NCBI GenBank assembly: GCA_965197585.1
Contig: OZ240215.1
Coordinates: 736,001 to 800,000 of the forward strand
DNA: 64,000 nt
From: Dehalococcoidia bacterium
GTDB lineage: Bacteria; Chloroflexota; Dehalococcoidia; Plut-88900
Direction of reading: 5' to 3'
The translations under genes and the position numbers were made by a program. Numbering within the stretch: the first letter of the stretch is position 1; the number at the start of each line of letters is the position of its first letter. Below are positions 37,589-57,117 of the stretch, piece by piece. The notes below the pieces were generated by a model. It worked only from the letters and a program-made list of their open reading frames with translations, ran no database searches and was not told the DNA's origin.

Positions 37589-37994
37589 TTGGGCTCTCCA
37601 AACTCGATGTTGACTGCCTATTTGTTAACTTTATGGGAACCGACACAATAAGTATGCGGGACCAGCAGCTCCAACCGCAGATAGTGCACCCACAATGGTG
37701 ATTTTTGGATCCTAAAGAGGCCTGCTTGTCCTTTTTTGGTAAGCCCGCTCACATACGCCGATGGATGCCAAGAATCGACCTCCCGCTTATCCCTACGCTC
37801 CGGCTTTCTGCCACACTCGATGTCACCTAGCGTTTCTGCTCTGTGTCTAACTCCCTAGTCAAAGCGTGACACAATGGCGGGCTTGTCCGGTTCTCGAATC
37901 ATGAACTCGGCCCCGAATAGCAGCATCTGTCATGTGTGCATCGCAACTACAGTATCGGTAGGTCTTGCTAAGGAAGCTGCATCGTCGCCGAAGT

Positions 37995-38660
37995 TCATCT
38001 CAACCGAACTATGAGTTCGGGCCCATCGTTACGCGAAAAGTTCACCAGCGTAGAGACTTCGTATGCATCTAGGCCCCCACTGGGGCTGGGAACCAGCATG
38101 TGAGCAAGGGTCGCCGGTTCCTCAATGCTCGGGTTCAGCCATATCTCCTCTGACCCTCGGGGCAGGATTACGGGCATCCGGTTGTGGATTGGGCTTAGAA
38201 AGTCGTTGGTTGCAGTAGTGATGATGGTACAGGACGGCACTATGTTGCCCTGGTGGTCTTTCCACGTCTCCCACAACCCGGCCATTGCGAAGGGCTCCCC
38301 TGACTTCATGATGATGCGATAGGGCTTCTTGCCCACAGGAGTCTTCTGCCACTCATAGTATCCGTCTGCGAGGACGAGGCAGCGGCGTTTCTTGAGAGCG
38401 TTGCGGAAGGCCGGTTTCTCGGCGACGGTCTCGGCGCGGGCGTTGATCATGCGCGCCCCGATCTTAGGATCCTTGGCCCAGAAGGGGACGAGGCCCCAGC
38501 GCATAAGGGATGCTTCCCTACCCTTGACATTTCTGACTGTCAGGACAGATTCGGTGGGGGCTATGTTGTAGCCGGGATCGTAGCTGAAGTCGGCGCCGTC
38601 GAATTCGAACCGTTGGGCGAGGTCTCCGATGTCGGCTATCAGGGTGTATCTACCGCACAC
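37995..38660 (-). CDS. SOS response-associated peptidase (SRAP/YedK/HMCES)
   Basis: N-terminal MCGRY, YNIAPT, INARAET, HNRMP. Confidence 0.95.
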   Translation of the reverse strand: MCGRYTLIADIGDLAQRFEFDGADFSYDPGYNIAPTESVLTVRNVKGREASLMRWGLVPFWAKDPKIGARMINARAETVAEKPAFRNALKKRRCLVLADGYYEWQKTPVGKKPYRIIMKSGEPFAMAGLWETWKDHQGNIVPSCTIITTATNDFLSPIHNRMPVILPRGSEEIWLNPSIEEPATLAHMLVPSPSGGLDAYEVSTLVNFSRNDGPELIVRLR

Positions 38661-38707
38661 GTCAGTGATTCCTCCCGACCGATTATCCCACTCGTAGGGC
38701 GGTCACC

Positions 38708-41700
38708 TCAATGCCAGTCATGGGCGGCAGGCATCCGGGTCCCGACATCCAGCGTCTTCACGCTGGAGAGGGTCACGTTGGTGGTGCCGTCATGGCGGGA
38801 GACGACTCCCCTGGCCAAGAGTACGTGATTGCCCAACTCTCTCTTGTACCGGGCGAAGACCTTCGGCCAGACGATTAACTGCACGTCTCCCGTCTCGTCT
38901 TCTATTGTCACAAATACCGTGCCCTCTATGCCCCTGGGGTGCTGCCGGGCGACGGGCCAGCCGGCCACTAGTACCTTCTCGCCCTCGGGGAGGGTGTCGA
39001 TGTCACGGGCGGGCAGGACATCGGGACTCAGAGTCGGTCTCACGAACTCCATGACGTGTCCCCTGGGATAGATGTCCATGACGGCGTACTCGCCGGCCAT
39101 CTTCTCCTTTGGGGTGAAGTCGGGCAGGTTGGGAATGTTGGTTCCCGAGGAGATGGACATGGCTCTCTGGCCGTTTCTCGGGGGGCGAACGGGAAGGCCG
39201 ACATCCCACAAGGCCTCCCTGCGGTTGGGAGTAACCTCGTCGAAGGCCCCGGCCATAACGAGGGAGTGGATGGCCCGGGGTTTAAGCCCGGTCCTCCGCA
39301 CCAGGTCCCCGGCCCCCAAGTAGAAGCCGTTCCTATCCCTCTCCTCAACTATTGTCCTGGCCGACTCCCCACCCACATCCTTGACGATCCCCAGACCCAG
39401 CAATAAGGCATCATTATGAGGTACACACTTCACCTCGCTGTAGTTCACGCACGGGTTCAGGAAGGGTACCCCGAACCGCCGGGCGTCCTCCTTTATGGTC
39501 TCCATCGGGTAGAAGCCCATCGGCTGGTTGTTCATCAGCGCGACGAAGAACTCCAGCGGGTAGTGGCACTTGAGCCATGCGGCTTGGTAGGCGGTGACGG
39601 CAAAGGCATGGGAGTGGGACTCGGGGAACATGTAGTGGCCGTTGATCTTGGAGAATATCTTCCTCGCTGTCTCCTCTGGGACGCCGTTGCAACGAGCGCC
39701 CTCTACGAACCTCTCCCAGTGCCTGGCGATGAGGTGCTCGCTGTTGGGTCTGGCGAAGGCGCGGCGCACCTCGTCAGCCTGCGCCGCGGTCATGCCGGCC
39801 ACGTCCTCGATGAGCTGCACGACCTGCTCCTGCCAGACGATGATCCCGTAGCCCCGTTCCAGGGCGCGGGCTTCCAGTGGGTAGTCATAGTCCCACTCCG
39901 CCCCGTGCCTGTAGCGCTCGACGAACTGGGAGACGGCGCTGCCCTGTACGCCAACGCCGGGCCGGATGAGGGCGACCTGGTAGGCGAGGTCGAGGAGGTT
40001 CCGGGACTTCAGCCTCTGACCCATCTTGAGCTGCGCCGGGGACTGGAGCAGGAAGACTCCCTTAGAGAGGCCCCCGTTTATCATGTCGTACACGACCGCG
40101 TCATCAGGGTCTATACGGCTGATGTCGGGCCGCCTGCCCTCTCTCTTCTCCACCAGGTCGAGGGCCTCCTCTATCTGGTCAAGGACCGGCAGGGAGAGGA
40201 TGTCGATCTTGGCGAACCCGGCGTCGGCCACGCTGTCCTTGTTCCAGTCCATGATGTAGCGCCCGTCCATGGCCCCGGCCCTTATGGGGACCATCTCAGG
40301 GATGGGGGAACTGCTGAGCACCATGCCGCCGACGTGCTGGCTCAGTCCCCTGGGCGCGTCCATCAGCTGTGGAGCGAGATCAAGCAGGTCTCGCCAGCCC
40401 CGCACGTCCACCCTGTCCCTGAAGTCCGGGATCTGCTCCATCTCGTCCCGCAGGTCCGCGGCGTCGTGGGAGTGCAGCTGCTTCGACAGGAGGGAGAGTC
40501 GCTCCTTTGGAAGCCCCAGGGCCTTGCCCAGGTCCTGGAGGATGCCCTTGACCTTGTAGGTGGTGATGGCCCCGGTCAACACGGCGTACTCCGGCCCGAA
40601 ATGCCGGTGGACCCGCTCTATGAGCTCGTCCCTCAGACCCCTGGGGAAGTCGAGGTCGATGTCGGGAAGCGTCGTCATATCCTTGGAGATGAAGCGCTCA
40701 AGGGTGAGGTCCCACTTCAGGGGGTCGACGTGGCTGATTCCGATGAGGTAGCCGATGAGCAGCGCCACCGATGAGCCCCGTCCTCTTCCCGGCGGCCTCT
40801 CCTCTATAGGAGTCTCCGGGTTGACCAGCCCACGCTCCTCCATGATCGTCTGCGCCAAGAGCGCGATCTCCCTGTAGAGGAGCAGGAAGCCAGCAAGGTT
40901 CAGATGCTCGATCAGCTGGAACTCCTCGCGGAGACGCTCTTCGACGCGCTGGGGCACCGAGCCGTAGCGCCGCGCGGCCGCCTCGTAGCAGAGCCTCCGA
41001 AGGTAGCTCTCGGCCGTGTATCCCTCCGGCACCGAGGGACTGGGCTGGGTGTAACCAAGGTCCGTGCTGAGATCGAAGGCGCACCGCTCCGCCACCCGCA
41101 GGGTGCTGGAGACGGCCTCCGGCCATTCCCTGAAGAGCCGTTCCATCTGGTCATGGGACTTCAGATAGAAGTGGTGGTTGGGGCGAAGGTGCGGCAGGGC
41201 CTGGTCTACGGTGGTGTTGAGCTTTGCGGCCACGAGAGCGTCCTGTAGACGGGAGCGTTCGGGATGGTGGTAGAGGACGTTGTTGGAGGCGACCACCGGG
41301 ACGCCGGCCTCACCGGCGATCCTTGCCAGCCTCCTGTTGAGGTCGGTGTCCCCACGCAGGCGGTTCTGGTTGAGCTCGACGTACACCGAGCCGGACCCGT
41401 ACCAGTCCAGGTACCCCCTCAGCAGGTCATTGGCTTCTCTTATGCGGCCCTCCGCCGCCAGCCGTGAAAGCGGCCCGTCCCGACCGCCTGTCAGGAGCAC
41501 GACGCCCTCGGAGTGGTGGGGCAGATGAGCGGGGTCCAGCCTCGGCTCGCTGCGGTCAACGGAGTTGGCGTTGGTGAAGAGCTGGGAGATGTTGGAGTAG
41601 CCTGACCGCGTCGCGGCGAGAAGCGTGAGACGGGAGCCATCGGTCAGGGTCAACTCGCCGCCGGTGATGGGCCGGATGCCCAGGCTGTTGGCTAGCCGCG

Positions 41701-41854
41701 CGAACTCCAGCGCTCCACAGAGGTTCGTGTCGGTCAAGGCCAGGGCGGGGTAGCCGAGCTCCTTCGCCTGCGCCAGCAGCTCATGGGCATGGGAAGCCCC
41801 CATCCCGAAGGAGTGGAAGCTCTTGGCGTGAAGCTCGACGTAGCCATCCGTCAT
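38708..41854 (-). CDS. dnaE2: error-prone DNA polymerase DnaE2 (ImuC)
   Basis: YVELHAKS PHP start overlapping imuB stop (TGATG), GRGS, PDIDLD, QHVGG, FPESH, NNQPMGFY, OB fold with IEDETG. Confidence 0.93.
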   Translation of the reverse strand: MTDGYVELHAKSFHSFGMGASHAHELLAQAKELGYPALALTDTNLCGALEFARLANSLGIRPITGGELTLTDGSRLTLLAATRSGYSNISQLFTNANSVDRSEPRLDPAHLPHHSEGVVLLTGGRDGPLSRLAAEGRIREANDLLRGYLDWYGSGSVYVELNQNRLRGDTDLNRRLARIAGEAGVPVVASNNVLYHHPERSRLQDALVAAKLNTTVDQALPHLRPNHHFYLKSHDQMERLFREWPEAVSSTLRVAERCAFDLSTDLGYTQPSPSVPEGYTAESYLRRLCYEAAARRYGSVPQRVEERLREEFQLIEHLNLAGFLLLYREIALLAQTIMEERGLVNPETPIEERPPGRGRGSSVALLIGYLIGISHVDPLKWDLTLERFISKDMTTLPDIDLDFPRGLRDELIERVHRHFGPEYAVLTGAITTYKVKGILQDLGKALGLPKERLSLLSKQLHSHDAADLRDEMEQIPDFRDRVDVRGWRDLLDLAPQLMDAPRGLSQHVGGMVLSSSPIPEMVPIRAGAMDGRYIMDWNKDSVADAGFAKIDILSLPVLDQIEEALDLVEKREGRRPDISRIDPDDAVVYDMINGGLSKGVFLLQSPAQLKMGQRLKSRNLLDLAYQVALIRPGVGVQGSAVSQFVERYRHGAEWDYDYPLEARALERGYGIIVWQEQVVQLIEDVAGMTAAQADEVRRAFARPNSEHLIARHWERFVEGARCNGVPEETARKIFSKINGHYMFPESHSHAFAVTAYQAAWLKCHYPLEFFVALMNNQPMGFYPMETIKEDARRFGVPFLNPCVNYSEVKCVPHNDALLLGLGIVKDVGGESARTIVEERDRNGFYLGAGDLVRRTGLKPRAIHSLVMAGAFDEVTPNRREALWDVGLPVRPPRNGQRAMSISSGTNIPNLPDFTPKEKMAGEYAVMDIYPRGHVMEFVRPTLSPDVLPARDIDTLPEGEKVLVAGWPVARQHPRGIEGTVFVTIEDETGDVQLIVWPKVFARYKRELGNHVLLARGVVSRHDGTTNVTLSSVKTLDVGTRMPAAHDWH

Positions 41855-43305
41855 CAGGCGCTCTGCCGGTACCAGCGTTCTTCCGTCCCGTCGCGGAACA
41901 GGGTGATCTGGCCGCCGCCGTCGGGCTCGATCCGGTAGTAGTCGCGGGCAACCGGCTCCGGGAGCCACCACAGGTCGAAGGTCCACATGTCGTCTATGCG
42001 GGCCACCCGCCGCCATCGTCTCCGAAGCAGCACCGACACAGGGTCGCCCTCCGTTCCCTCCCGCACCTCCACCGGCTGCGGCGGGTGGAGGGGCCTGATG
42101 GCGTCCCTGCCCGACGGGTCGATGGGCACCTGCAGGGCACGCATCTCCGGGGCGGGGTGCCACGGCGCGACCTCGGCGATCCGGTGGAGTGTGTGACCGC
42201 CTCCCATCACCGCCTGCAACCTGCGCTCCACCTCGACGAGCCTCCTGCGCCTGTCGTCCTGGAAGTCCTTCAGCAGCCCCATCTGGACGCCCGACTCGCC
42301 GGTGAAGCCAGACAGGGTGACCGTCACGTCCTCGACGGGGTTGTGCGGAGGGTCCGCCTCCAACTTGCTCCGGACGATTTCGGAGGCCCTCTCCCATGCG
42401 CCGACCGGCTGCTTGAACCTGACACTCTTCTCCCAGGGCGGCCAACCGGAAGCCGTGCAGAGGAGGTCCGCCGCGCCCGCGTACCGGCCCCTCATGTCCG
42501 ACCTGGCGTATGCCCGTCTTAGAAGGGCGTCCACGGCGACGAACAGAGCCTGTATGGAGGAGGAGTGGAACGGCAACGACGTGTGCTCGACGACTGACTC
42601 CTCCAACGCCAGGGGTATGACCGGGCTGTCGTCGACACCGTTGCAGAGCGACCACGCCCGCCTGCCTTCGGGCCCGAACCGGTCCGTGAGCACGTGGACG
42701 CTCATCTCTGCGACAGCGCCCACCGTGTGCAGGCCGAATCGATGCAGCTCGGCCTTCACGTCGGCGGAGACGGGCAGCAGGTCGGCGGCGTGCGGGGCCA
42801 GGAACGCCTCCACGTCGTCGGGGACCCTGAACGCCCCGTGCGCGCCGCACGTCAGGGCCGCTACATATGCGGGGAACTTGGCGTCTGCCAGCCCGACGCG
42901 GGGGCTCAGGTACGGAGGAACCGCGTTGAGCAGCGCCGAGACGACCCCAGCCTCGCCCTGGTACAGCCCTTCGAGGCCGTCGATGCGCACGTAGGCGATG
43001 CCGAGCTCTGTCCCCTCAACCCGGTCGCTGATACCCTGTAGGGAGGAGAGCACCCGGCCGAAGACCCGGCGGTAGTGCGGCTCGTCGGAGTCCAGCACGA
43101 CGGCGTTCGCGTGGCGGGACAAGCCCGCCTCCAGGGTCATCCCGGCCGTGACTCCCCAGGCTGAGCGAAAGCGGTCGACGACCAGTGGCCTCGTCCTCGA
43201 AGCGTTCCGGTCGACGATCAGTACGGGCCTGTCCTTCAGCTGGGGCTGCCGGCCCATCTGCACCTTTGCTCTCAGGTGAGTGACGAGCACGCAAGCGACT
43301 CTCAT
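41854..43305 (-). CDS. imuB: ImuB-like Y-family polymerase homologue
   Basis: GVTAGMTL, AYVRIDGL, FGLHTVG; lacks obvious catalytic SIDE motif; coupled to dnaE2. Confidence 0.85.
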   Translation of the reverse strand: MRVACVLVTHLRAKVQMGRQPQLKDRPVLIVDRNASRTRPLVVDRFRSAWGVTAGMTLEAGLSRHANAVVLDSDEPHYRRVFGRVLSSLQGISDRVEGTELGIAYVRIDGLEGLYQGEAGVVSALLNAVPPYLSPRVGLADAKFPAYVAALTCGAHGAFRVPDDVEAFLAPHAADLLPVSADVKAELHRFGLHTVGAVAEMSVHVLTDRFGPEGRRAWSLCNGVDDSPVIPLALEESVVEHTSLPFHSSSIQALFVAVDALLRRAYARSDMRGRYAGAADLLCTASGWPPWEKSVRFKQPVGAWERASEIVRSKLEADPPHNPVEDVTVTLSGFTGESGVQMGLLKDFQDDRRRRLVEVERRLQAVMGGGHTLHRIAEVAPWHPAPEMRALQVPIDPSGRDAIRPLHPPQPVEVREGTEGDPVSVLLRRRWRRVARIDDMWTFDLWWLPEPVARDYYRIEPDGGGQITLFRDGTEERWYRQSA

Positions 43306-43346
43306 AGGTCCTCCTCGATCCTTGAGTAGAGGGGTCAGGACGGGAA

Positions 43347-43375
43347 AGGATAGAGAACAGGTGTTCGTTTGTCAA
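43347..43375 (-). promoter_or_regulatory. SOS promoter with LexA box
   Basis: minus-strand TTGACA-N17-TATCCT; GAAC-AGGT-GTTC (43355-43366) inside the spacer. Confidence 0.85.
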
Positions 43376-43554
43376 CCATTCGGCTGAATTCACAACGCTG
43401 TACGAGCGGCGGTGTACCGGGACCAGTGCAACCGAGCAACCATGACGAGTCGGTGGGACAATCCCATGCCGATACCCCGTCATTTGCGCGAGTGCTACCA
43501 TCAACGTCGCATAGCGGCTAGGATAGTTTCGAGCAATCGGAGGGTGTATGGCCG

Positions 43555-44358
43555 ATGGCGGAGCTAGGACCGGCAACGACACGACGGACGAGGACTGGGG
43601 TCAACTACGCCAGCCAGTGGAATCACTTCGTCGCGTGGTCCCGGGCTTCAGGGAAGTGTTCGCTGCCCGCTTCCCCCGAGGACGTGGCGGCATACCTCGA
43701 AGACCGGTCGGGGACGGGCGCGAGGCCATCGACCCTGCGGGTGGTGGCTGCGGCGATAGCCCGCAGCCACAGGGACGCCGGTTTCGACGTGCCGATCCAT
43801 AAAGGCCCCGCCCGGACCGCGCTGGAAGAGTTGACGCAGGAGGACTCCCACCGCCCGGCCAGGGCGCTCCCCCTGGACCTGGACTGCTATCTCGCCATCA
43901 GGAAGACGGCCCAACAGCCCCGTAGGGGAAGGGGCGGCCGGCTGGAACGCACCGCGAGCGCCCGCAGGCGGGGAGCGATGGACATTGCCATGATCGGCCT
44001 GATGCGGGATGCGAGGCTGAGGGTGAGCGAGGCGGCCGACCTGACCTGGGGCGACATCGAGCGTCAGCGCGGCGGCTCGGGACGCGTTCGCGTCGTGGGA
44101 GACGGGGAGACCAGCCACCGCGAGGTGAGCGCCGACACGATGAAGTTGCTCCTGCCGGTACGACGGGGCGCGGGCGACGACGAGCCCGTTCTCGGCATGA
44201 GGCCCAACCAGATAGCGAGACGGATAGACGCGGCGGCGAGACAGGCCGGCCTGGGCGAGGGCTACTCCGGCGACAGCCCCCGGCTGGGCATGATCCGGGA
44301 CATGGAGACCGTCGGCGTACACCTGCTGGGTGCCTACGCCGCAGAGAGCGCACGCTAG
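43555..44358 (+). CDS. Cre-like tyrosine recombinase paralogue, apparently catalytically degenerate
   Basis: N-terminal core-binding domain and LRVSEA retained; DSPR instead of HxxR; lacks catalytic Lys hairpin and canonical W/Y tail. Confidence 0.75.
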   Translation: MAELGPATTRRTRTGVNYASQWNHFVAWSRASGKCSLPASPEDVAAYLEDRSGTGARPSTLRVVAAAIARSHRDAGFDVPIHKGPARTALEELTQEDSHRPARALPLDLDCYLAIRKTAQQPRRGRGGRLERTASARRRGAMDIAMIGLMRDARLRVSEAADLTWGDIERQRGGSGRVRVVGDGETSHREVSADTMKLLLPVRRGAGDDEPVLGMRPNQIARRIDAAARQAGLGEGYSGDSPRLGMIRDMETVGVHLLGAYAAESAR

Positions 44359-44763
44359 CCGTAGGCATCCCCCAATAGGGCGTTACGCCACGGGCCCGGA
44401 CGCCGGGCTCGCTCAAGGGTCCCTGTAGAGATCGGTACCCGCTCTCAGCCCCGACTCGCCGTGGGGGCCCCTGGAGCATCCTTCGAGCCCCCAAAATCGT
44501 TACACTATATATAGGAGACGAAATTTGTAGCCGCCTCGGGAGGGAAGGGATTCCCGGAGGGGTCTACGAGCAGCTCCGGCATAGCAGGGTCAACATCCGT
44601 CCCGGCCTGAAAAAATCGTATGTTTTCAATAGAGACGGCATCTCATAACGATGCGGCCATTGACGAGAAAAGAGGAGGTACAGCATGGGGTTAAATGGGA
44701 GCCCGGAAGGGGGCGGATAGGAGAGAGGGTTTCGTTCCAGCCGGCAGTCTCAGCCGCTAATGC

Positions 44764-44797
44764 TAAAGCGTGTATAAATACATTTATACACCCTGTA
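44764..44797. other. loxP-like recombination site 1
   Basis: TAAAGCGTGTATA-AATACATT-TATACACCCTGTA (13-8-13; arms 11/13 inverted match). Confidence 0.75.
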
Positions 44798-44829
44798 GCT
44801 AAACGACAATGAAAGCGGCTAGGAGACAA

Positions 44830-46089
44830 ATGACACAGGGTAAGCCGGATCTCGAACAGTACTTTCCCGCCGGTCTGCGGCTACTCGAACACCGCCCGGC
44901 AGGCGGAGGCGAGAGCGAACGAGAGCAGGCCCGCGCCCTTCTTTCAGGACCTCAAGCCAGGATAAGCAGGCTCCGGGACTTTGCGGACTTCGACGAGCCT
45001 TCCCGGCCCGAGCCGGCCCGTGCAGCAGGCCGCACCCGGAACCGGGGCGGCTACCGGAGCGAGGCGGATGCGGGCGCTCTCATCACCGTCGCTCCCACCG
45101 ACCTCACGGGCGTGTTCGAGGTGGAACCGGACGATCCCTCTCGAAACGGCGCCAATCTTGCGGAGTCGGACCTGGACAACCTGACCGCGGTCCTCGGCCA
45201 CGAGGTCGCCCCCAATACGATGAAGAACTACCGGGTCCAGTGGAACAATTTCATAAACTGGGCGGCCGGCAAGGGCGTACGGGCGCTGCCCGCCGACCCG
45301 CGGCACGTCGCCGCATACCTGGCCGAGCGCATCGAAGAGCACGGCCACAAGCCCGCGACGCTGCGGGCCGCGGCGGCGGCCATAGCGTTCATCCACAGGT
45401 CCGCCGGGCAGGACGACCCCTGCGCCAGCCCCGAGGTCAAGCGAACGCTCAGGAGCGCAACGCGCAAGGCCGGCAGGGGCCAGAAGCAGGCTCAGGCGCT
45501 CACGGACGAGGCGCTCGTCGCCATCCGGTCGACCGCCTGCAGCCCTCGTCCCGGCCGGGGCGGCAGGCCGGAGGGCCGGGAGACCGCCAGGTGCAGGGGG
45601 AACCTGGACATAGCGCTGATCAGCCTGATGCGCGACGCCATGCTCAGAGTGTCCGAGGCCGCCGTCCTGACCTGGAGCGACATAGTGTCCGAGGCCGACG
45701 GCACGGGACGCCTGCTCATCCGGCGCTCCAAGACGGACTCCGAGGGAGAGGGGGCGGTGGGTTTCCTGTCCGTTCAGACGATGGAGGCGCTCAGGCTGAT
45801 ATGCGGCGCGAGGGTGTCCACGGACAGCGTGTTCGGGCTGCGCCCCAACCAGATCTCACGGCGCATCAAGCAGGCGGCGCAGGCGGCAGGCCTGGGGGAC
45901 GGCTTCAGCGGTCACTCGCCGAGGGTGGGCATGGCCCGGGACCTGGCGAGGGCCGGAATCGAGCTGCCCAGCCTGATGAACGCCGGACGCTGGCGCACCC
46001 CGGCCATGCCCGCTCACTACACCCGCAACGAGACAGCAGGCAAGGGAGCGGTGGCCCAGTTCCACGGCTACTGCCGCCGCGTCGCATGA
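44830..46089 (+). CDS. Cre-like tyrosine recombinase, intact catalytic set
   Basis: LRVSEA (R), RSKTD (K), GHSPRVG (HxxR), AGRW (W), HYTR (Y); AGGAG RBS before ATG 44830. Confidence 0.9.
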   Translation: MTQGKPDLEQYFPAGLRLLEHRPAGGGESEREQARALLSGPQARISRLRDFADFDEPSRPEPARAAGRTRNRGGYRSEADAGALITVAPTDLTGVFEVEPDDPSRNGANLAESDLDNLTAVLGHEVAPNTMKNYRVQWNNFINWAAGKGVRALPADPRHVAAYLAERIEEHGHKPATLRAAAAAIAFIHRSAGQDDPCASPEVKRTLRSATRKAGRGQKQAQALTDEALVAIRSTACSPRPGRGGRPEGRETARCRGNLDIALISLMRDAMLRVSEAAVLTWSDIVSEADGTGRLLIRRSKTDSEGEGAVGFLSVQTMEALRLICGARVSTDSVFGLRPNQISRRIKQAAQAAGLGDGFSGHSPRVGMARDLARAGIELPSLMNAGRWRTPAMPAHYTRNETAGKGAVAQFHGYCRRVA

Positions 46090-46130
46090 ACGGGGCTCTT
46101 AATTTAGGAAGAGAATCCTTGCAACGGGGA

Positions 46131-46158
46131 TTGACTTGACCTGGCGAATTGTGATAAT
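46131..46158 (+). promoter_or_regulatory. putative outward-facing promoter inside lox-flanked segment
   Basis: TTGACT-N16-GATAAT with TGn extended -10. Confidence 0.55.
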
Positions 46159-46212
46159 TTTTGGCCCATGAAGCGGTTAACCACCGCCTCCAGCGGTATT
46201 AGAGGAGACAAT

Positions 46213-46246
46213 AAAAGCGTGTATAAATGTATTTATACACCCTCTG
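46213..46246. other. loxP-like recombination site 2 (spacer inverted relative to site 1)
   Basis: AAAAGCGTGTATA-AATGTATT-TATACACCCTCTG; spacer is the exact reverse complement of AATACATT. Confidence 0.75.
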
Positions 46247-46733
46247 GCTTGAGAAACTCCTACGGGTCGCCGCCTGCGCCTGCCCGTCGCGCCGGACGGA
46301 CCGGCGGGATGACAACGCTGACGGCCCATCACTCCCAATGGTGTGCTCACTGGGGAGAAATTACCCCATCCGGCGGGAACGAGGATACCGAGTACTACGG
46401 TGACGCCCGCAATGGAGAGGCACTGGCCCCTCCGATAACACTTCTCTCGTTTGTCTGTGGTGAAAGGAATACTGAGCCGGGCCTCACCTGCGCCGAGTTC
46501 ATCGATCCTCCTGCCCAATCACGACCGGGCCAGGTTCTCACCTCGGCGGCCGTAGAGCGCATCTCCCGCGGCATAGTGGTCTCGATCCCGCTCAAGTCAT
46601 CCCCGGCCGACTACACCGTGTTCATTATGAACAACGCTATTGCCCAAGCAGTGCCTATCTTCCACCGAACATACGAAAAAGTGGTGGCTTGTTGGCCCCC
46701 GACTAACGCGAATCGGCGAGCCGGAGGTAAGTC

Positions 46734-49700
46734 ATGAGAGCCTCCCGGAGTCTTGCGACGCTCCCACTGATTCTCCTCGGACTGACGGCCATCGCCGCCC
46801 TGGTGCTCATACCCTGGGTTGTCCAGGCACAGAGCCAGACGTCAGATGAGAATACAGTGGTTTGGTCGGCCGACATGTATGTCGTGGAATACACCTCCGT
46901 TTCCATTGGAGCTGCCAGCGCCGACCTTTTCTCCAACATAGGGGGCAGCGGAAACCTTAACATAAAGTCGCTTTGGTCCCATGTTCCTAACCGTGATATC
47001 CACCTGAGCTTCGAAGATGGGGTTCCCGATGCCGCGGACTATACGCTCAAAGTTGGCGACCTCACTCTGGAATTTCCAAAGGGAAGTTCCGAGAACAGTA
47101 GCTTCAAATGGGCGGATGTGGACGTCGATTGGGAGGACGGACAGACGATTCCTGTGAGCATCGTCCCAACGTCGGTGCTGGTGAAACCCACTCCCAACAG
47201 TGATGCCACCGGTCTGCCGACCATCAGCGGTACGCCCCAAGTGAGGGAGACCCTGACGGCGGATACGGCGGACATTGCCGACGGGGATGGGCTGAACAAC
47301 GTTGCTTACCGATACCAGTGGGTCGCCGGGGGTTCGGACATCAACGGGGCCACCGGTTCAACCTACACCCTGACTACCAGCGAGCAGGGCAAGACCATCA
47401 AGGTGAAGGTGTCCTTCACTGACGACGCCGATAACGAGGAGACCCTGACCAGCGAAGCTACGGTGGAGGTAGCTGCGGCGCCCAACCGTGATGCCACGGG
47501 CGCGCCGACCATCAGCGGGACGCCCCAGGTGAGGGAGACCCTGACGGCGGATACGGCGGACATTGCCGACGGGGACGGGCTGAGCAACGTTACTTACCGA
47601 TTCCAGTGGATCACGAATAACGGGTACGCCGACGCGGACATTGAGGACGCAACGGACTCCACCTATACCCTGTCCGACACCGATGTGGGCAAGACCATCA
47701 AGGTTCGGGTCTCATTCGCCGACGCCGCCGATAACGACGAGTCCCTGACCAGCGTGGGGACAACAGCAGTTCTCGCCACCGTACCCACACAGCCTTTGAG
47801 CCTGGCCGTGGCAACAGGAGACCAAATCCAGGAACTTGATGCGTCTTGGCAGGCCCCCTCATCCAACGGTGGTTCCGCCATCACTGGATACAAGGTGCAG
47901 TGGAAGGAGGCGGCCGACAGCTGGGACACCGCAGCGGACGTTTCCGAGGCCACGGTGACCGGGACTACGGACACTATCACCGGATTGACTGGAGGGGTGG
48001 CATACGCCGTTCGGGTCATAGCCAGCAACGTCATGGGCTACGGTCCGGCATCTACCGAGGCGGCGGGCACGCCTAGCGGAGGCATCTCGGAGCAGAACAC
48101 CGAGTCTGAGAACTCTGCGCCCGCCGGCCTGCCCACCATCAGCGGGACGCCCGAGGCGGAACAGACGCTGACGGCGGACACCTCGGCCATTACCGACGGG
48201 GACGGGTTGACCAATGTTTCCTACGGCTACCAGTGGATCAGGAACGACGGGAACGCCGACGCCGACATTGAGGATGCAACGGACTCGACCTACAAGCTGT
48301 CCGACGCCGACGTGGGCAAGACCATCAAGGTGAAGGTGAGCTTCACCGATGACGCTGACAACCAGGAGACCCTCACCAGCGCGGCTACTGACGAAGTGGT
48401 GGCGGCCCAGGCAAGCAGTCAAGGCACCACTCTTCCTACCGTCATCGGACCTGCCGTGGTCGACCAGACGCTGACCGTGTCCACGTCGGACATCGCCGAC
48501 GACGACGGACTGACCAACGTTTCCTACAGTTACCAGTGGATTCGCAGCGGCACCAACGGTGACACCGACATAGCGGGCCAGACAGCATCCACGTACACGC
48601 TGGTCGCCGCAGATGTGGGCAACGCAATCAAGGTCAAGGTGTCCTTCGATGACGACGCCAACAACCAGGAGACTCGCACCAGCGAGGCGACCGCGACCGT
48701 GGTGGCCAAGCCGAACGTGATTGTTATTCTAGTGGATGACCTGGGGTACAACGACGTCAGCTACAACGGCGCCACGCAGATTCAGACGACAAACATAGAC
48801 CGCCTGGCCAGCCGCGGCGTTACATTCACGAATGGATATGTGCCCTACTCAACTTGCACTCCGTCCCGAGCTGGCCTTCTGACCGGTCGTTACCCGTCAA
48901 GGTTCGGTTTGGAAGGCAACCTGGCGTACGCTCCCTTTGACGATAACCATGGGCTTCCACTAGAGGAAACGCTCTTTCCCGAAAGACTTCAAGACGAAGG
49001 CTATCGGACTGGTATCGTGGGCAAGTGGCAGCTTGGAGCCGCACGGAGATTCAACCCGCTTAACCGGGGATTCGACTACTTCTTCGGTTTCCTGGGCGGT
49101 GGGCACAGCTATTGGCACTCAAATACGACGTCCCCGCACGACCACATGCAACTCCCGCTCATCGAGAACACCGGTTACGGAGAGTTCGACGGATATTTGA
49201 CGGACGTCCTCACCGACAGAGCAATAGACTTTATCGAGAAACCAACGGACGAACCCTTTTTCCTCTACCTGGCCTACAACGCGCCACACACTCCACTACA
49301 GGCCCCGCAGGAACTCATCGACAAGTACTCCACCGTTGAAGACCGCAAGCGGCGCATCTACCTCGCAATGGTGGACTCGCTCGACCAGAACATCGGCAGA
49401 GTGCTGGACGCCCTGGACGAATCCTCCCTCGCCGACAACACCGTCATCTTCTTCCTCAGCGACAACGGCGGCCGGTCCGGCAAGCCTCCGGAATCAGACC
49501 ACGCCGACAACAACCCGCTCCGCGGCGCGAAAGACAGTTTCTACGAAGGCGGAATACACGTACCTTTTGTCGCTTCATGGCCAGCCATGTGGCCCGAAGG
49601 GCACACCTACGATCCTATGGTCATCAGCCTGGACATAGCCTCTACCGTCCTGAAGCTGGCAAACGCCACCTCCGAAGACCCCGACAGGCCGATCGACGGA

Positions 49701-51923
49701 GTCGACCTTGACCCATTTCTCCGAGGCGCAGAAGAAGGCCCCCCGCATCAGGCATTGTTCTGGCGCGACTGGAGAAGCGGAGGCTACGCAGTCCGCTCCG
49801 GCGATGACAAACTGATCAAAGAAAGGCGCATTCACGGAAAACCCCAACCCATCCTGGACACAGGTGAAAGCCCCGAGCTATTCGACCTCGAGAACGACAT
49901 CAGCGAGTCACAAGACCTGCTGGCCGAGCAGCCGAAGACAGCACAAGAGCTTGCAGCGCTGTGGAACGCATGGAACGCAGACAACGCCATCGGCAACCTG
50001 TTCTACGGCATCAGTTCCTACAACGACAACCTCAAGGCATACCTGCAAGGCTATTACGACCAAAGGTTCCTCACTGCGACACAATTGCCGAAGTATGAAA
50101 TAGATTTACCTCTTGTGCAGCCACCCGTAGCCGACGGCAATGCCACGGGCTTGCCGACCATCAGCGGGACGCCACAGGTGAGGGAGACCCTGACGGCGGA
50201 TACGGCGGACATTGCCGACGAGGACGGGCTGACCAACGTTGCTTACCGATACCAGTGGAGCGCCGGGGGTTCGGACATCAACGGGGCCACCAGTTCCACC
50301 TACATCCTGACCGCCAGCGAGCAGGGCAAGACCATCAAGGTGAAGGTGTCCTTCACCGACGACGCCGATAACGAGGAGACCCTGACCAGTGAAGCGACAG
50401 TGGCCGTAGCTGCGGCGCCCAACCGTGATGCCACGGGCTTGCCGACCATCAGCGGGACGCCACAGGTGAGGGAGACCCTCACGGCGGATACGGCGGACAT
50501 TGCCGACGAGGACGGGCTGACCAACGTTGCTTACCGATACCAGTGGAGCGCCGGGGGTTCGGACATCAACGAGGCCACCAGTTCCACCTACATCCTGACC
50601 GCCAGCGAGCAGGGCAAGACCATCAAGGTGAAGGTGTCCTTCACCGACGACGCCGATAACGAGGAGACTCTGACCAGCGAAACGACAGTGGCCGTAGCTG
50701 CAGCTGCCAACCGCGGGGCCACGGGCCAGCCCACCATCAGCGGTACGCCCCAGGTGAGGGAGACCCTCACGACGGATACGGCGGACATTGCCGACGAGGA
50801 CGGGCTGACCAACGTCTCATACAGCTACCAGTGGATCGCGGGAGGGACGGACATCGGCGGGGCCACCGGCTCCACCCACACCCTGACCGCCAGCGAACAG
50901 GGCAAGACCATCAAGGTGAAGGTGTCCTTCACCGACGACGCCGATAACGAGGAGACTCTGACCAGCGAAACGACAGTGGCCGTAGCTGCAGCTGCCAACC
51001 GCGGGGCCACGGGCCAGCCCACCATCAGCGGTACGCCCCAGGTGGGCCAGACGCTGACGGCGGATACGGCAAACATCGTCGACCAAGACGGGCTGACCAA
51101 CGTCTCATACAGCTACCAGTGGATCGCGGGAGGGACGGACATCGGCGGGGCCACCGGCTCCACCCACACCCTGACCACCAGCGAGCAGGGACAGACCATC
51201 CAGGTGCGGGTGACCTTCACCGACGACGCCGATAATGAAGAGACCCTGACCAGCATTGCTACCGTCGCCGTTACGGCGGCCGCTGCCCAAGCCAACAACC
51301 CGCCCACCGGCCTGCCCGGCATCAGCGGGACCCCCCAGGTGAGAGAGACGCTGACGGCGGACACCTCGCCCATAGACGACCAGGACGGGCTGACCAACGT
51401 TGCCTACCGTTACCAGTGGACCGCCGGAGGGTCGGACATCAACGGGGCCACCAGTTCCACCTACATCCTGACCGCCAGCGAGCAGGGCAAGACCATCAAG
51501 GTGAAGGTGTCCTTCACCGACGACGCCGATAACGAGGAGTCCCTGACCAGCGAAGCGACAGTGGCCGTAGCTGCGGCGCCAGTTCCGCTCACCGTCAGCC
51601 TGACCGTCACGGCCCCGGCGACCCATGACGGATCGTCAGAGTTCACCTTTGACATCGAGTTCAGCGAGGAGTTCGGCCTGAGCTACGTGACCCTGAAGAC
51701 CCATGCCTTCAATGTGACGGGAGGCACGGTCGAGACTGCGCAGAGAACGGACAAGCCCAGCAACATCTCCTGGCGCATCACGGTAAAGCCGCAAGGCAAC
51801 GGGGACGTGACCATCGTTCTGCCCGTCACCACGGACTGCGACGCCGACGGGGCCATCTGCACCGCGGACGGCAGGAAACTGTCCAACTCGCTGAGCTTCA
51901 CTGTATCGGGGCCGGGCCAATAG
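46734..51923 (+). CDS. secreted 1729-aa Ig-like-repeat/FN3 protein with embedded sulfatase domain
   Basis: signal peptide ending VQA; nine ~96-aa PTISG...YQW...VSFTDD repeats; FN3 (WQAP...GYKVQW); PNVIVILVDDLG and CTPSRAGLLTG sulfatase signature; SDNG. Confidence 0.9.
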   Translation: MRASRSLATLPLILLGLTAIAALVLIPWVVQAQSQTSDENTVVWSADMYVVEYTSVSIGAASADLFSNIGGSGNLNIKSLWSHVPNRDIHLSFEDGVPDAADYTLKVGDLTLEFPKGSSENSSFKWADVDVDWEDGQTIPVSIVPTSVLVKPTPNSDATGLPTISGTPQVRETLTADTADIADGDGLNNVAYRYQWVAGGSDINGATGSTYTLTTSEQGKTIKVKVSFTDDADNEETLTSEATVEVAAAPNRDATGAPTISGTPQVRETLTADTADIADGDGLSNVTYRFQWITNNGYADADIEDATDSTYTLSDTDVGKTIKVRVSFADAADNDESLTSVGTTAVLATVPTQPLSLAVATGDQIQELDASWQAPSSNGGSAITGYKVQWKEAADSWDTAADVSEATVTGTTDTITGLTGGVAYAVRVIASNVMGYGPASTEAAGTPSGGISEQNTESENSAPAGLPTISGTPEAEQTLTADTSAITDGDGLTNVSYGYQWIRNDGNADADIEDATDSTYKLSDADVGKTIKVKVSFTDDADNQETLTSAATDEVVAAQASSQGTTLPTVIGPAVVDQTLTVSTSDIADDDGLTNVSYSYQWIRSGTNGDTDIAGQTASTYTLVAADVGNAIKVKVSFDDDANNQETRTSEATATVVAKPNVIVILVDDLGYNDVSYNGATQIQTTNIDRLASRGVTFTNGYVPYSTCTPSRAGLLTGRYPSRFGLEGNLAYAPFDDNHGLPLEETLFPERLQDEGYRTGIVGKWQLGAARRFNPLNRGFDYFFGFLGGGHSYWHSNTTSPHDHMQLPLIENTGYGEFDGYLTDVLTDRAIDFIEKPTDEPFFLYLAYNAPHTPLQAPQELIDKYSTVEDRKRRIYLAMVDSLDQNIGRVLDALDESSLADNTVIFFLSDNGGRSGKPPESDHADNNPLRGAKDSFYEGGIHVPFVASWPAMWPEGHTYDPMVISLDIASTVLKLANATSEDPDRPIDGVDLDPFLRGAEEGPPHQALFWRDWRSGGYAVRSGDDKLIKERRIHGKPQPILDTGESPELFDLENDISESQDLLAEQPKTAQELAALWNAWNADNAIGNLFYGISSYNDNLKAYLQGYYDQRFLTATQLPKYEIDLPLVQPPVADGNATGLPTISGTPQVRETLTADTADIADEDGLTNVAYRYQWSAGGSDINGATSSTYILTASEQGKTIKVKVSFTDDADNEETLTSEATVAVAAAPNRDATGLPTISGTPQVRETLTADTADIADEDGLTNVAYRYQWSAGGSDINEATSSTYILTASEQGKTIKVKVSFTDDADNEETLTSETTVAVAAAANRGATGQPTISGTPQVRETLTTDTADIADEDGLTNVSYSYQWIAGGTDIGGATGSTHTLTASEQGKTIKVKVSFTDDADNEETLTSETTVAVAAAANRGATGQPTISGTPQVGQTLTADTANIVDQDGLTNVSYSYQWIAGGTDIGGATGSTHTLTTSEQGQTIQVRVTFTDDADNEETLTSIATVAVTAAAAQANNPPTGLPGISGTPQVRETLTADTSPIDDQDGLTNVAYRYQWTAGGSDINGATSSTYILTASEQGKTIKVKVSFTDDADNEESLTSEATVAVAAAPVPLTVSLTVTAPATHDGSSEFTFDIEFSEEFGLSYVTLKTHAFNVTGGTVETAQRTDKPSNISWRITVKPQGNGDVTIVLPVTTDCDADGAICTADGRKLSNSLSFTVSGPGQ
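50141..51580 (+). repeat. coding tandem repeats, 288-bp period
   Basis: units start at 50141, 50429, 50717 and 51005, with a fifth at about 51300. Confidence 0.9.
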
Positions 51924-52077
51924 GAGGCTACGGGAAAAGCAAACACATATAGACAGACGAGTGAGGCAAGCGTACGAAGGGGATCTGGACCGCCCAAGGT
52001 CTAAGTCGTACGGGAGATGAGTCGCCTCCGCTCGTATAGAAAAGAGCCTCCGGCTGTGCTCTAGGAGGGCTTGCTCG

Positions 52078-52323
52078 ATGCCCCGACAGCGCACTCGCTA
52101 CAGCACCACAACCCACGCCTTCACCGAAGACTTCCCGGAGCGGCTGAAGCGTTTCCAGAGGGAGTCTGGGCTGTCGTGGTCGGAGATCTCCCGGCGTCTG
52201 GCAACCTACCGCCACACCGTATGGCGTTGGAAGGAAGGCAGAGGTCGACCCAACGCCGAGCACATGATCGCCCTCCTCGACCTGGCCGAAGACCTGGGTC
52301 TCCTCCACCTGTTCACCGAGTAA
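52078..52323 (+). CDS. XRE-family helix-turn-helix protein
   Basis: GLSWSEISRRL...TVWRWKEG...P pattern; AGGAGG RBS. Confidence 0.75.
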   Translation: MPRQRTRYSTTTHAFTEDFPERLKRFQRESGLSWSEISRRLATYRHTVWRWKEGRGRPNAEHMIALLDLAEDLGLLHLFTE

Positions 52324-52418
52324 TAGGGCGACGCGGGCGCAGGGGCCTACTGCAACGCAAAAAGGGCCGCACACATAGATGGGCCATGCTCCTACCGGCC
52401 TGACGGTTTCGGTTCGGT

Positions 52419-52739
52419 CTACTTTGGCAGCAGCCGGGCGCTCTCACGATATTCCTTCGCCTCGCCCGGCTGACCCTCGGCCTCAAGGTCCCGGCTGGTC
52501 TTCACGGCGAAGGGCGCCGCCCGGGACTTGCACCCCTCACAGACGACCCCGACCGGATTGCCGTACAAGCGGTCCTCCAGGTCGCCGTTCACGCCTCTCC
52601 GGTCGTTGGCTGGGGCGTCGGCCCCGCAGAGAGCCCTCTCGCGGGCCGCGTTCTCGTCGAACAGGTGCATCTCCATCACTTCATACCTCCTGCTGGTATC
52701 TACTCCCACCGTCAATGACTCGTCCCTTCGGATTCTCAT
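52419..52739 (-). CDS. hypothetical protein, possible Zn-binding
   Basis: H..ALCG..CEGC; start uncertain. Confidence 0.4.
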   Translation of the reverse strand: MRIRRDESLTVGVDTSRRYEVMEMHLFDENAARERALCGADAPANDRRGVNGDLEDRLYGNPVGVVCEGCKSRAAPFAVKTSRDLEAEGQPGEAKEYRESARLLPK

Positions 52740-52911
52740 TCCAACTCTCCTCCTTTATAGCTGTGCCTGAAATGCAAAAAGACCCCATACATGGACGCGC
52801 AAATGGCGCTAAACGCAAAAAGGACTGTATACATGAATGGGCGGGGGAGACCGTCGCCCTGCGACGACCTCCCCCGTATCTCTGCGGTCTGCAGCCGCGT
52901 CGGTCGGCCCC

Positions 52912-53427
52912 CTAGAACAGCCTCAGCGTCTGCTGTTGTGCCTGCGACTCCTCTGCCGAGCCGGTTGCGTCCTGGGCCGCCCCCTGCCCGCGCCGGTTCC
53001 GGCGTCCGGTGGGGGGATCGGGCCTCACGTGGGCCGGGTGCTTGGGGTTGTCTTCCCACCTGGCCCTCGCCCTCTCGACCACCGCCAGGGTCTCCTGCGT
53101 CAGGCCACTCAGGTCGCCTTCATCGAACGTCTCGATGTGGGGGTCCGACGAGGGCTGCTGCACCCCTATGGTGCCCCTGCCAGCCTTGATTAGGACGACG
53201 ATCTTGAGGTCCTCCGGCGGAGCGTCCTGCTCTCCGGTGTCGTCAGAACCCTGTCCGTCCCGTTCGGCCTCCCTGTTGGTGTCCTGCTCACCGGCAGCCG
53301 CATCGTTGGAGTCTCCCTCCTCCACGATAGTCGCAGGAGCGGTGTCGTCCGCCTTGTCTCCGAAGAGACTGTCGTCTGCGCCGGGCGCATCCGATTGGGT
53401 TGCTTCCGTTCTCTTCTCGTCAGCCAT
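52912..53427 (-). CDS. hypothetical protein
   Basis: AGGAG RBS, acidic N-terminus, co-oriented with backbone. Confidence 0.6.
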   Translation of the reverse strand: MADEKRTEATQSDAPGADDSLFGDKADDTAPATIVEEGDSNDAAAGEQDTNREAERDGQGSDDTGEQDAPPEDLKIVVLIKAGRGTIGVQQPSSDPHIETFDEGDLSGLTQETLAVVERARARWEDNPKHPAHVRPDPPTGRRNRRGQGAAQDATGSAEESQAQQQTLRLF

Positions 53428-53462
53428 GGTCTTCTCCTTTACTCATTGGTTCTCCGATTGGG

Positions 53463-53849
53463 TTATGCCGCGAGCCTCGCCTCCCTCCTGATCTCGCCCA
53501 GGGTCTTCGGCTCCCAATACAGGTCGCGCTCCACGGCGGGGACTTGGCCGAAAACCGTCACCTCCGCCAGCTCGTCGAGAGCGAAGTAACCGAGCTCGGT
53601 CTCGAAGCCCTCGACGAGGCCGAAGCAGAGCCCGGTCTCGGCCTCCCACTCGGTGACGTACCAGCGCCATCCGTTGTAGGGGGAGAACAGTTTCACTCTT
53701 GCGACCACGGCGTCGGGGTCGTCCGCGCCGTCATTGGCGTACAGGGGCGGGATCGTGGCCCCGAGCTCTTTCGTCATGAGCTTGTGCCTGCGGAGGCCGC
53801 TGTGGGCGTCCTGCCACATGGTCTTGGTGGTCCCGTTCTTGTCAGTCAT
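53463..53849 (-). CDS. DUF2958-like protein
   Basis: KLFSPY..WRWYVTE, FGLVEG.ETELGYF, ERDLYW. Confidence 0.75.
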   Translation of the reverse strand: MTDKNGTTKTMWQDAHSGLRRHKLMTKELGATIPPLYANDGADDPDAVVARVKLFSPYNGWRWYVTEWEAETGLCFGLVEGFETELGYFALDELAEVTVFGQVPAVERDLYWEPKTLGEIRREARLAA

Positions 53850-53908
53850 GGTTTCTCCTCTCGTTGTTGCTTCTCAAGGTGTATCCGTTGGCGTTGTTCC
53901 CTAGGCTG

Positions 53909-54718: not shown

Positions 54719-54778
54719 CTTCAGTTCACCTCCTTGTCTTTGGATTGTTGTCTCGTGTCTCCTCCGGCTCCTAGCGCA

Positions 54779-55375
54779 TCAGCCGGAGGCCCCGATCCGG
54801 CCGGCGATCACCTGGGACCAATGCGCGGGTGCGAAATGGCCGTAGACGCCGACCCGCAGGCTCAGCTCGGGCAGGTCCGTGTCGAGGCGTCCGACGACGC
54901 CGTAGATTCGGAACCCCTGCTCGTCCCGGTCGTCGGTATCCGAGAAGAAGGCGGGGGAGGTTCCGTGGGAGTGGAACTCGGCGACCACTCCGGTGGGCGG
55001 CCGGTAGGTGAGGGATGTAGTGGTCCCGGTCTGCGGGGGCACCACCAGCCCATAAGCCTGCCCGTCCCAGCGCACTGCAAAGAACCGCTCGGTGTCCGGG
55101 ACGATCCGGAACCAGCGCAGACCCAGCTCTAAGACCTCAGCCGGGATCGGGCCGTGACCCAACACCACCTTCTCGGCCACGGGAGCGAGCCCCCGCACCT
55201 CGCAGGGGGCGACCAGAACCCGTGCCGCCAGATGGGGGCTCTCGGACTGGACGTAGACGCCTCCGGCCCCCAGCACGTAGTCGTAGCCGATTCCCTGGAC
55301 TCCGGAGAGTCCGGCGGGGTGGTTGACCAGGTAGCCTACCGGCTCCGGTCCTGCGTTAGCGGTAGCGGTAGCCAA
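54779..55375 (-). CDS. JAB/MPN metalloprotease (PRTRC protein A-like)
   Basis: E...HSHG...FFSDTDDRDE; TTG start after GAGGG inferred. Confidence 0.85.
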   Translation of the reverse strand: MATATANAGPEPVGYLVNHPAGLSGVQGIGYDYVLGAGGVYVQSESPHLAARVLVAPCEVRGLAPVAEKVVLGHGPIPAEVLELGLRWFRIVPDTERFFAVRWDGQAYGLVVPPQTGTTTSLTYRPPTGVVAEFHSHGTSPAFFSDTDDRDEQGFRIYGVVGRLDTDLPELSLRVGVYGHFAPAHWSQVIAGRIGASG

Positions 55376-57104: not shown

Positions 57105-57117
57105 GGGGCTCTCTCCT

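Follow-up and report, generated by a model that had tools for sequence, protein, structure and literature searches.

Tyrosine recombinases operate invertible promoter switches in several bacteria, among them fimS of Escherichia coli, served by FimB and FimE, and the invertons of Bacteroides and Clostridioides; in switches of the fimS type, the invertible element is small (~0.2-0.3 kb), with the recombinase genes placed outside it, and its repeats are short and unlike lox. The Hin/hix system of Salmonella carries both the recombinase gene and an outward promoter inside the invertible segment and uses a serine invertase that needs an enhancer and Fis. Cre of phage P1 serves plasmid-dimer resolution and circularisation, and to our knowledge the natural roles of Cre-type enzymes outside this phage are poorly described. 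The present analysis concerns a stretch of 64,000 nucleotides from a Dehalococcoidia bacterium (contig OZ240215.1, positions 736,001 to 800,000; hereafter the window), in which the gene of a Cre-family tyrosine recombinase sits inside a 1.44-kb segment between two lox-like sites of 13-8-13 architecture. The locus is very likely best explained as a self-contained Cre/lox-like inversion switch, and we are more confident still that the window, as judged by comparison with related loci, holds its recombined state.

Studies mining for Cre-type systems (Vika, Dre, VCre) seek a palindromic site within 1 kb of the recombinase gene, in phage-derived contexts, and the portion of that account used here (PMC10250229) describes no gene bracketed by two inverted sites. 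Among engineered sites, recombination of lox66 with lox71 yields loxP and lox72; the double mutant lox72 binds Cre poorly and the reaction is nearly one-way, as set out in the sections of PMC8116776 on which we draw. Our literature search found nothing joining Dehalococcoidia with invertons, and a search on Cre-like tyrosine recombinases in connection with invertible DNA and phase variation returned only unrelated work.

Site 1 reads TAAAGCGTGTATA (left arm, L1), AATACATT (spacer) and TATACACCCTGTA (right arm, R1), and site 2 reads AAAAGCGTGTATA (L2), AATGTATT (spacer) and TATACACCCTCTG (R2); their coordinates, and those of the other features, are collected in Table 1. Both sites combine a left arm of the AAAGCG type, which is the consensus, with a right arm of the GGG type, around opposite spacers; an earlier note on this DNA had described this arrangement from the letters, calling the right arms CCCT-type. 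The two spacers are exact reverse complements whose sole difference is the central dinucleotide, AC versus GT, and because of this relationship the recombinase is expected to invert, not excise, the segment. GTGTATA or its complement forms the inner 7 nt of all four arms. A 22-nt core pattern, allowing up to 3 mismatches, matches only these two sites in the 64-kb window, where shuffles give an expectation of 0.00 (n = 100); the sites are not explained by chance, and the whole genome (3.43 Mb, a single contig) holds one further good copy, at 2,594,705. Site 1 lies at most 33 nt upstream of the recombinase gene and site 2 lies 124 nt downstream, and the arrangement by which Cre-type systems are recognised, a 13-8-13 site with an asymmetric 8-bp spacer near the gene, is found here and, with the same architecture, in 20 cassettes.

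The earlier note had reasoned from the arms that the segment is in an already flipped state. Arm matches within the two sites are 11/13 and 10/13 today and become 12/13 and 11/13 after in-silico inversion through the spacers, which yields exactly the two sites that had been predicted; the gain is real and small, amounting to about one arm position per site (position 6, where the left arm of either site has C and the right arm has G). Because one in three of the possible pairings of two C and two G arms fits, the window alone could not carry the inference, and the arm argument drawn from its sequence is weak, suggestive and not conclusive. The case is instead carried by the relatives of the locus.

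The recombinase is the sole gene between sites 1 and 2 and matches Pfam Phage_integrase (1.5e-13) together with a SAM-like domain; Pfam gave only these two, and thus no resolvase-type (serine invertase) domain. A search of the PDB with the recombinase returned 18 matches, comprising 16 Cre, one Tre (a Cre derivative) and one XerD, with a best E of 2.5e-14. The catalytic Arg, Lys, HxxR, Trp and Tyr of Cre are all aligned in the enzyme: in the pairing with Cre chain 7rhz_B, 'mlrvseaa' stands beside 'llriaeia' (Arg), 'rsktds' beside 'rtktlv' (Lys), 'ghsprvg' beside 'ghsarvg' (His and Arg), 'agrw' beside 'aggw' (Trp) and 'ahytrn' beside 'mnyirn' (Tyr). In Cre itself the catalytic residues are R173, K201, H289, R292, W315 and Y324, according to the part of PMC10250229 used here. 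The similarity comes mostly from residues 358-409, the N-terminal and central stretch contributing only 19 bits; an NCBIfam search gave Xer matches only, all sub-threshold, and the protein carries an N-terminal extension of ~120 residues relative to Cre. Enzyme and sites possess the Cre-type features tested (catalytic residues and a 13-8-13 site by the gene), with an overall similarity to Cre that is distant.

Relatives of the module were sought by a protein search of 60 relatives and of the window's own genome, by a pattern scan of one genome per prokaryote species and by a metagenome scan. Of the eight other congeneric genomes covered by the protein search, three encode the recombinase, and none of those covered from beyond the genus does; the pattern scan gave 31 stretches, 28 of which are titled Dehalococcoidia, Chloroflexota or (once) Binatia, and the metagenome scan added two further distinct paired-site cassettes. 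Loci and genomes are referred to below by our own L and G numbers; L038 and L046 duplicate the loci of G001 and G005, and each was counted once. The three remaining pattern matches, in records labelled Micavibrio, Staphylococcus and Clostridia, were rejected as chance, no recombinase being present there.

Nine intact cassettes have a flanking recombinase paralogue, and only in the window does the recombinase lie on the paralogue's strand; all eight others (L034, L036, L039, L058, L031, L053, G001 and L044) are inverted relative to the window. When window positions 43300-47300 are compared by blastn with seven inverted relatives, three blocks are obtained in the order +, -, +, and their boundaries (44794-44797, 44757-44767, 46243-46250 and 46216) all fall inside the two sites. 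A model of the window flipped in silico aligns unbroken to G005 over 534 nt, to a decayed copy of the module elsewhere in the same genome over 350 nt and to G001 over 554 nt, whereas the present order aligns over only 442, 57 and 210 nt, respectively. The G001 orthologue, 68-70% identical, stands between sites with spacers AATCCAGT and ACTGGATT in a segment that, judged against the paralogue and a giant gene, is inverted compared with the window, and its paralogue-side site is a perfect 13/13 GCG/CGC palindrome. The locus in G005, of the same genus, is decayed: the recombinase is lost, while the paralogue, a symmetric GCG/CGC site, a reversed promoter region and an outer-left flank with 86-88% identity to that of the window are still there. 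Both orientations with shared outer flanks also occur in L032 versus L047, in one genome, and in L048 versus L055, in two genomes. Across the relatives, a segment bounded by inverted sites is thus known in both orientations, as in an inverton. The opposite orientation with symmetric sites, which the earlier note had proposed to look for in related genomes, was therefore looked for and found, and inverted junctions occur in two metagenome contigs as well.

Other homologues depart from this pattern. G003 encodes a 41% identical recombinase homologue without such sites, and six metagenome loci with 57-72% identical recombinases (L020 and L023-L027) contain no site of this type. Another 13-8-13 candidate, with AGATCACGCA-type arms and mutually reverse-complement spacers, is present in L024 (2106-2139) and L026 (3589-3622), whose recombinases are 57-64% identical; these candidate sites suggest a sister subfamily of other specificity.

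The decayed copy in the window's own genome, at ~2.59 Mb (G000:C1:2593664-2595041; L004 1664-3041), contains the third site (L003/L004), which reads TAAAGCGTGTATA / AATACAGT / TATACACGCTTTT and whose two arms are exactly those of the predicted symmetric GCG/CGC site. Its left flank matches the outer-left flank of the window (87.7% over 57 nt), and upstream of it lies a broken paralogue copy, 71% identical over 683 nt to the gene preceding site 1. To its right, window 45919-46243 recurs in reverse complement (minus strand, 76% over 327 nt); this stretch comprises the recombinase 3' end and the flank on the inner side of site 2. Only the last 62 recombinase codons and a degenerate promoter region are kept, and an NmrA-like gene adjoins the copy, followed 2 kb further on by a cadherin/Ig giant gene. 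By its flanks, the copy is frozen in the orientation opposite to that of the window. No partner site was found for it, the interval L004 13100-13500, where homology to a small open reading frame (ORF) of the window resumes, being without a lox-like site. The ORFs adjoining the copy have no relation to the recombinase.

What becomes of the individual arms is best followed when these are named by the DNA that they adjoin: L1 by the paralogue-side flank, L2 by the recombinase 3' end, R1 by the recombinase 5' end and R2 by the giant-gene side. In the proposed mechanism each arm would stay with that DNA throughout a crossover in the spacer, and the crossover is placed in the spacer because the arms do stay with their flanking DNA. 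L1 and L2 form a near-palindromic site in relatives, with R1 and R2 forming another in the closest ones, and in the window the four arms are re-sorted into two hybrid sites. Over nine cassettes, the mean mismatches to TAAAGCGTGTATA are 0.56 for L1, 0.89 for L2, 2.00 for R1 and 2.78 for R2; arm position 6 is C in 9/9 L1 and 8/9 L2 arms and is G, A, C or T among the R arms. In the inverted relatives, L1 and L2 share one site and match at 12-13 of 13 positions in seven of the eight cassettes, and in the closest relatives (recombinase 89-94% identical) R1 and R2 match at 11-13 of 13. L039 and L058 carry TACAGGG-type arms on both sides, which is the predicted GGG/CCC site. The consensus site is present in 7/8 intact relatives and a double-variant site in L039, L058 and L036, and the lox66/lox71 pattern, with one variant arm per substrate site and consensus and double-variant products, is thus found in this family. 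In the window each of the four arms sits on the flank that it has in the relatives, but the pairs are L1-R1 and L2-R2, the outcome of a conservative exchange inside the spacer; this pairing on unchanged flanks excludes both direct duplication with a 2-bp change and a mobile element carrying whole sites.

These comparisons bear on the claims of the earlier note. Its inference that recombination produced the present sites, and hence that the system has fired, is borne out by eight of eight other intact and two decayed cassettes in inverted orientation, by breakpoints within the sites and by arms anchored to their flanks, and we hold it with a confidence close to that placed in the recombined state itself. 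The note's picture of two symmetric parental sites stands with reservations: the GCG/CGC site is present in 7/8 intact relatives (with at most one arm mismatch) and in both decayed copies, and the GGG/CCC site is present in L039 and L058, but the right-hand site is not always symmetric. For a reversible switch, 'parental' is in any case a convention.

The spacers add a line of evidence of their own. Partner spacers are exactly complementary in 16 of the 20 two-site cassettes and differ only at position 8 in two more, and by analogy with Cre this position would lie outside the 6-bp exchanged region; seven different spacer sequences are found among the cassettes. Spacer position 7 is T in both window sites, a derived state, and G in L039 and in the decayed copy. 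A shared T at this position is expected to spread between partner sites through the exchange heteroduplex, and we infer from it independent evidence that the sites recombine. Separately, L036 (sites at 4995 and 6444) has both spacers in one direction, with a single central base different between them, and the cassette looks locked; one spacer is of the L039 type and the other of the L044 type, L036, L039 and L044 lie on the same chromosome, and these spacers hint at a past exchange between cassettes, i.e., at large chromosomal rearrangements.

Three readings without recombinase-driven inversion in place can be weighed against this evidence. Site 2 might be a direct duplicate of site 1 in which the two central spacer bases later changed, with no flip ever having taken place; as direct repeats the sites are 32/36 identical, and the spacer differs only in its central dinucleotide. 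However, in direct register the similarity ends with the sites, the interior is inverted, with breakpoints in the sites, in relatives that share the outer flanks, and paired inverted spacers occur in 18/20 cassettes, which leaves this reading barely credible. The earlier note had itself named such a duplication with a 2-bp change, or the presence of this one orientation in all relatives, as what would tell against it; neither was found, and the outer arms stay with the outer flanks as the inner arms do with the segment. The lox-bounded unit might alternatively be a mobile element with the sites as terminal inverted repeats, inserted either way round, a reading for which several genomes with two or three cassettes and solo sites in L040, L041 and L052 can be cited. 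Insertion would nevertheless put an R2-type arm at the outer left of the window, where the L1 type is found as in relatives, and paralogous copies have in common two genes beyond the sites, the paralogue and the small ORF, such that the duplicated unit is larger than the lox-bounded segment; this alternative is very improbable, if slightly less so than duplication. Misassembly, or a rare exchange of the RecA type in which short inverted repeats recombine independently of the recombinase, would fit the break of run contigs near the sites and the nearly palindromic 22-bp core that the sites share. A 1.4-kb misflip exactly at 34-bp repeats is, however, unlikely in a single-contig genome of 3.43 Mb, the orientation polymorphism recurs in three independent cassette pairs, and the covariation of partner spacers is a signature of spacer-dependent site-specific exchange; we give this explanation as little credence as the duplication.

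Public metagenome data were used in the form of four runs (X1-X4) that hold parts of the region, all as assembled contigs in which minority forms are not visible. In one contig of X4, position 44759 is linked to 46250 on the opposite strand; the two positions mirror each other within the sites, with 24 letters ambiguous and 79 on the short side. One contig of X1 (a 90-95% relative) joins the recombinase 3' end (to 46091) to a reversed site 1. A third joint, in X1 (46090 to 46245, 32 letters on the short side), was discarded, as it lies inside the palindromic site and is not interpretable. For inversion, the metagenome contigs serve as supporting evidence only.

The orientation of the segment determines what its outward-facing elements adjoin. 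A promoter-like element lies between the recombinase stop codon and site 2; it agrees with the consensus at 10/12 positions, with the TG, and is one of two matches in 43300-47000. TTGAC and a TG-extended second hexamer are present in 11/11 aligned sequences (nine cassettes and two relics), and the promoter-like hexamers are followed by a conserved GCGGTTAACCACCGCC-like motif and by GGAGA ~10 nt before a GTG in the arm. In the window this GTG, at 46219, is in frame with the 189-codon small ORF; in relatives of the other orientation, the frame instead follows the recombinase 5' region in reverse, which has no such ribosome-binding site. Only the orientation of the window directs the promoter-like element, ribosome-binding site and GTG towards the small ORF and the giant gene, where they would drive the small ORF and, by translational coupling, the giant gene. 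Related giant genes are found beside the cassette in six or more further loci (L022, L029, L031, L038, which is the G001 locus, L039 and L053), where they face the recombinase 5' end, and the body of the small ORF from residue 18 is 70-75% identical in L034, L036 and L039. On this basis, we lean towards the reading that the window is the ON state and its relatives the OFF state of a phase switch for the giant gene, a proposal held with distinctly less confidence than the inversion. No Rfam match was found in 43000-47500.

Several observations weigh against the switch as proposed. The two orientations come from different loci, genomes and contigs and not from one clonal population; the inverted contigs of X4 and X1 may stem from related strains (90-99% alike), and X2 and X3, assembled contigs that hold about half of the window's sampled words and stop near the sites, have no inverted joint. 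Right-hand symmetry is not universal, R1 and R2 agreeing at 9/13 in G001 and 8/13 in L044, and two cassettes, L036 and L033, have mismatched spacers. On the side of expression, the promoter is a consensus match only and its G001 counterpart falls below the scan threshold, and the small ORF has no match in Pfam, NCBIfam or PHROG and no similarity in G001 at E 1e-4.

The flanking paralogue is 44% identical to the main recombinase over 261 aa. All eight orthologues (window 43555-44358 and its counterparts in L034, L036, L039, L058, L038, L053 and L031) have GDSPRLG, in which the His of HxxR is replaced by Asp, lack the Trp/Tyr region and end in ...AESAR; in one of them the tail Tyr is replaced by Phe. 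No NCBIfam or PHROG family match was found for the paralogue. Since its ratio of nonsynonymous to synonymous substitution rates (dN/dS) is 0.13-0.19, it is maintained, probably as a non-catalytic partner or regulator.

Whether the two arm classes give the switch a direction is a separate matter. The earlier note had suggested that the hybrid and symmetric states might recombine at different rates, which has an analogy in engineered sites and which we hold to be less likely than not. If the symmetric state were the resting state of the switch, the 8:1 ratio of orientations and the looser constraint on the R arms would fit; common descent or selection favouring OFF would account for both equally well. 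In a fuller and more speculative form, which we consider unlikely, a hybrid ON state would relax fast to a symmetric OFF state whose weak GGG/CCC-type site rarely fires, and the paralogue would tune or gate this bias; it might occupy one arm class or join the synapse. If this were true, rare and transient bursts of a giant surface protein would take place in uncultured bacteria with Dehalococcoidia-labelled relatives. An even chance is given to the alternative that the inversion is real and the arm classes have no kinetic meaning, in which case the switch is unbiased, neither state is 'parental' and the excess of one orientation reflects ancestry, rare switching or selection on expression. The R arms vary freely, with G, A, C or T at position 6, and this position may matter little for binding; for G001, L053 and several paralogue-less cassettes the two states have equal numbers of arm matches (22 versus 22, 23 versus 23), and the eight flipped cassettes are phylogenetically related and not independent. 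Unequal constraint is nonetheless indicated by L1 and L2 remaining nearly invariant while R1 and R2 drift, and an engineered site with two variant arms can lose affinity for Cre (PMC8116776, in the sections drawn on above).

Table 1. Features of the inversion locus in window coordinates.
Feature	Position	Strand	Description
Lox-like site 1	44764..44797	+	34 bp, 13-8-13; L1 44764-44776, spacer 44777-44784, R1 44785-44797
Lox-like site 2	46213..46246	+	34 bp, 13-8-13; L2 46213-46225, spacer 46226-46233, R2 46234-46246
Invertible segment	44785..46225	.	Arm R1 through arm L2, 1,441 bp; minus-strand middle block in 7 intact relatives; boundaries inside the sites
Cre-family tyrosine recombinase	44830..46089	+	419 aa; ATG at 44830 with AGGAGA just upstream; other in-frame ATG at 44809
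Truncated recombinase paralogue	43555..44358	+	267 aa; outside the invertible segment; weak Pfam Phage_integrase match
Outer-left flank, conserved	44359..44763	+	Joined to arm L1 in every relative; blastn left '+' block from ~43490 to 44794-44797
Sigma-70-type promoter-like element, outward	46131..46158	+	TTGACT, 16 nt, TG-extended GATAAT; inside the segment, reads across site 2
Ribosome-binding-like AGGAGA and GTG	46203..46221	+	AGGAGA 46203-46208, then GTG 46219-46221 in arm L2
Small ORF	46168..46737	+	189 aa; starts in the segment, runs through site 2, ATGA overlap with the giant gene; N-terminal coding uncertain
Giant secreted protein	46734..51923	+	1,729 aa; signal peptide, sulfatase domain, fn3/Ig-like and ZirU-family repeats; putative switched gene

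Parts of the small ORF (window 46250-46650, ...TLTAHHSQW...) recur at L004 13321-13469 and 16443-16655, with 49-52% protein and 71-73% DNA identity; there they precede other gene clusters of the same genome, one with a Cache-domain protein, and may represent either a small protein family or a leader element. Within the giant gene, tandem units of ~288 nt (47190-47500 and 50085-51560) are present that recur in many other giant genes of the genome and to which the metagenome runs give very high contig depth. Immediately upstream of the switch, the minus strand of window 37995-43582 encodes an error-prone repair set made up of a SRAP peptidase, a DnaE-type polymerase (1,380 aa), an ImuB-like IMS-family protein (483 aa) and a 188-aa ORF. 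In window 26000-38000 and 52000-61500, a block of lower guanine-plus-cytosine (G+C) content (49-54%) contains large family-less ORFs and a SIR2-like protein, and a cluster beyond it groups ThiF-like and JAB-like genes with a helicase and a DUF6094 methyltransferase; the low-G+C block and this cluster are possible defence islands. GC skew is strongly positive (0.08-0.32) over window 1-26000 and then falls to about zero.

Cre/lox is among the main tools of genome engineering, and here ~20 chromosomal cassettes are found in which a Cre-type enzyme would flip its own gene. The family offers ready-made orthogonal lox-like systems, with natural site variants, seven mutually incompatible spacers and two arm classes, and at the same time a natural experiment on arm asymmetry and directionality. 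It would also be the first hint that giant surface proteins are phase-variable in this lineage, which is poorly known and for the most part uncultured.

As in fimS-type invertons, a short segment between inverted repeats carries a promoter whose orientation is predicted to set the expression of an adjacent surface-structure gene; in the window, unlike in fimS, the recombinase is inside the segment. The presence of two recombinase paralogues at one switch recalls FimB and FimE, but the second paralogue of the window lacks key catalytic residues. The position of the recombinase within the segment is shared with Hin, from which the enzyme differs in being a tyrosine recombinase (Pfam Phage_integrase). 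With lox66/lox71 the window sites share their geometry, one consensus and one variant arm per site; the variant arms of the window differ at two or three outer positions whereas the engineered ones differ at five, and the arrangement is natural and serves inversion whereas the engineered one serves integration or deletion. Cre/loxP itself is likewise among the closest known systems: the 34-bp site, 13-bp inverted arms and asymmetric 8-bp spacer are the same, a window site lies within 50 bp of the gene, the best solved-structure matches of the enzyme are Cre with the catalytic positions aligned, and the inner arm letters GTATA/TATAC and the ATACAT spacer core are common to the window sites and to loxP as given in the part of PMC8116776 used here. 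The enzyme is nonetheless only distantly similar to Cre, aligning strongly only over the C-terminal catalytic 52 residues, and enzymes of its type are chromosomal in relatives labelled Dehalococcoidia, with no recognisable phage. Whereas Cre serves P1, the gene in the window is bracketed by inverted sites and adjoined by a conserved non-catalytic paralogue, and the natural reaction of its product would be the inversion of its own gene.

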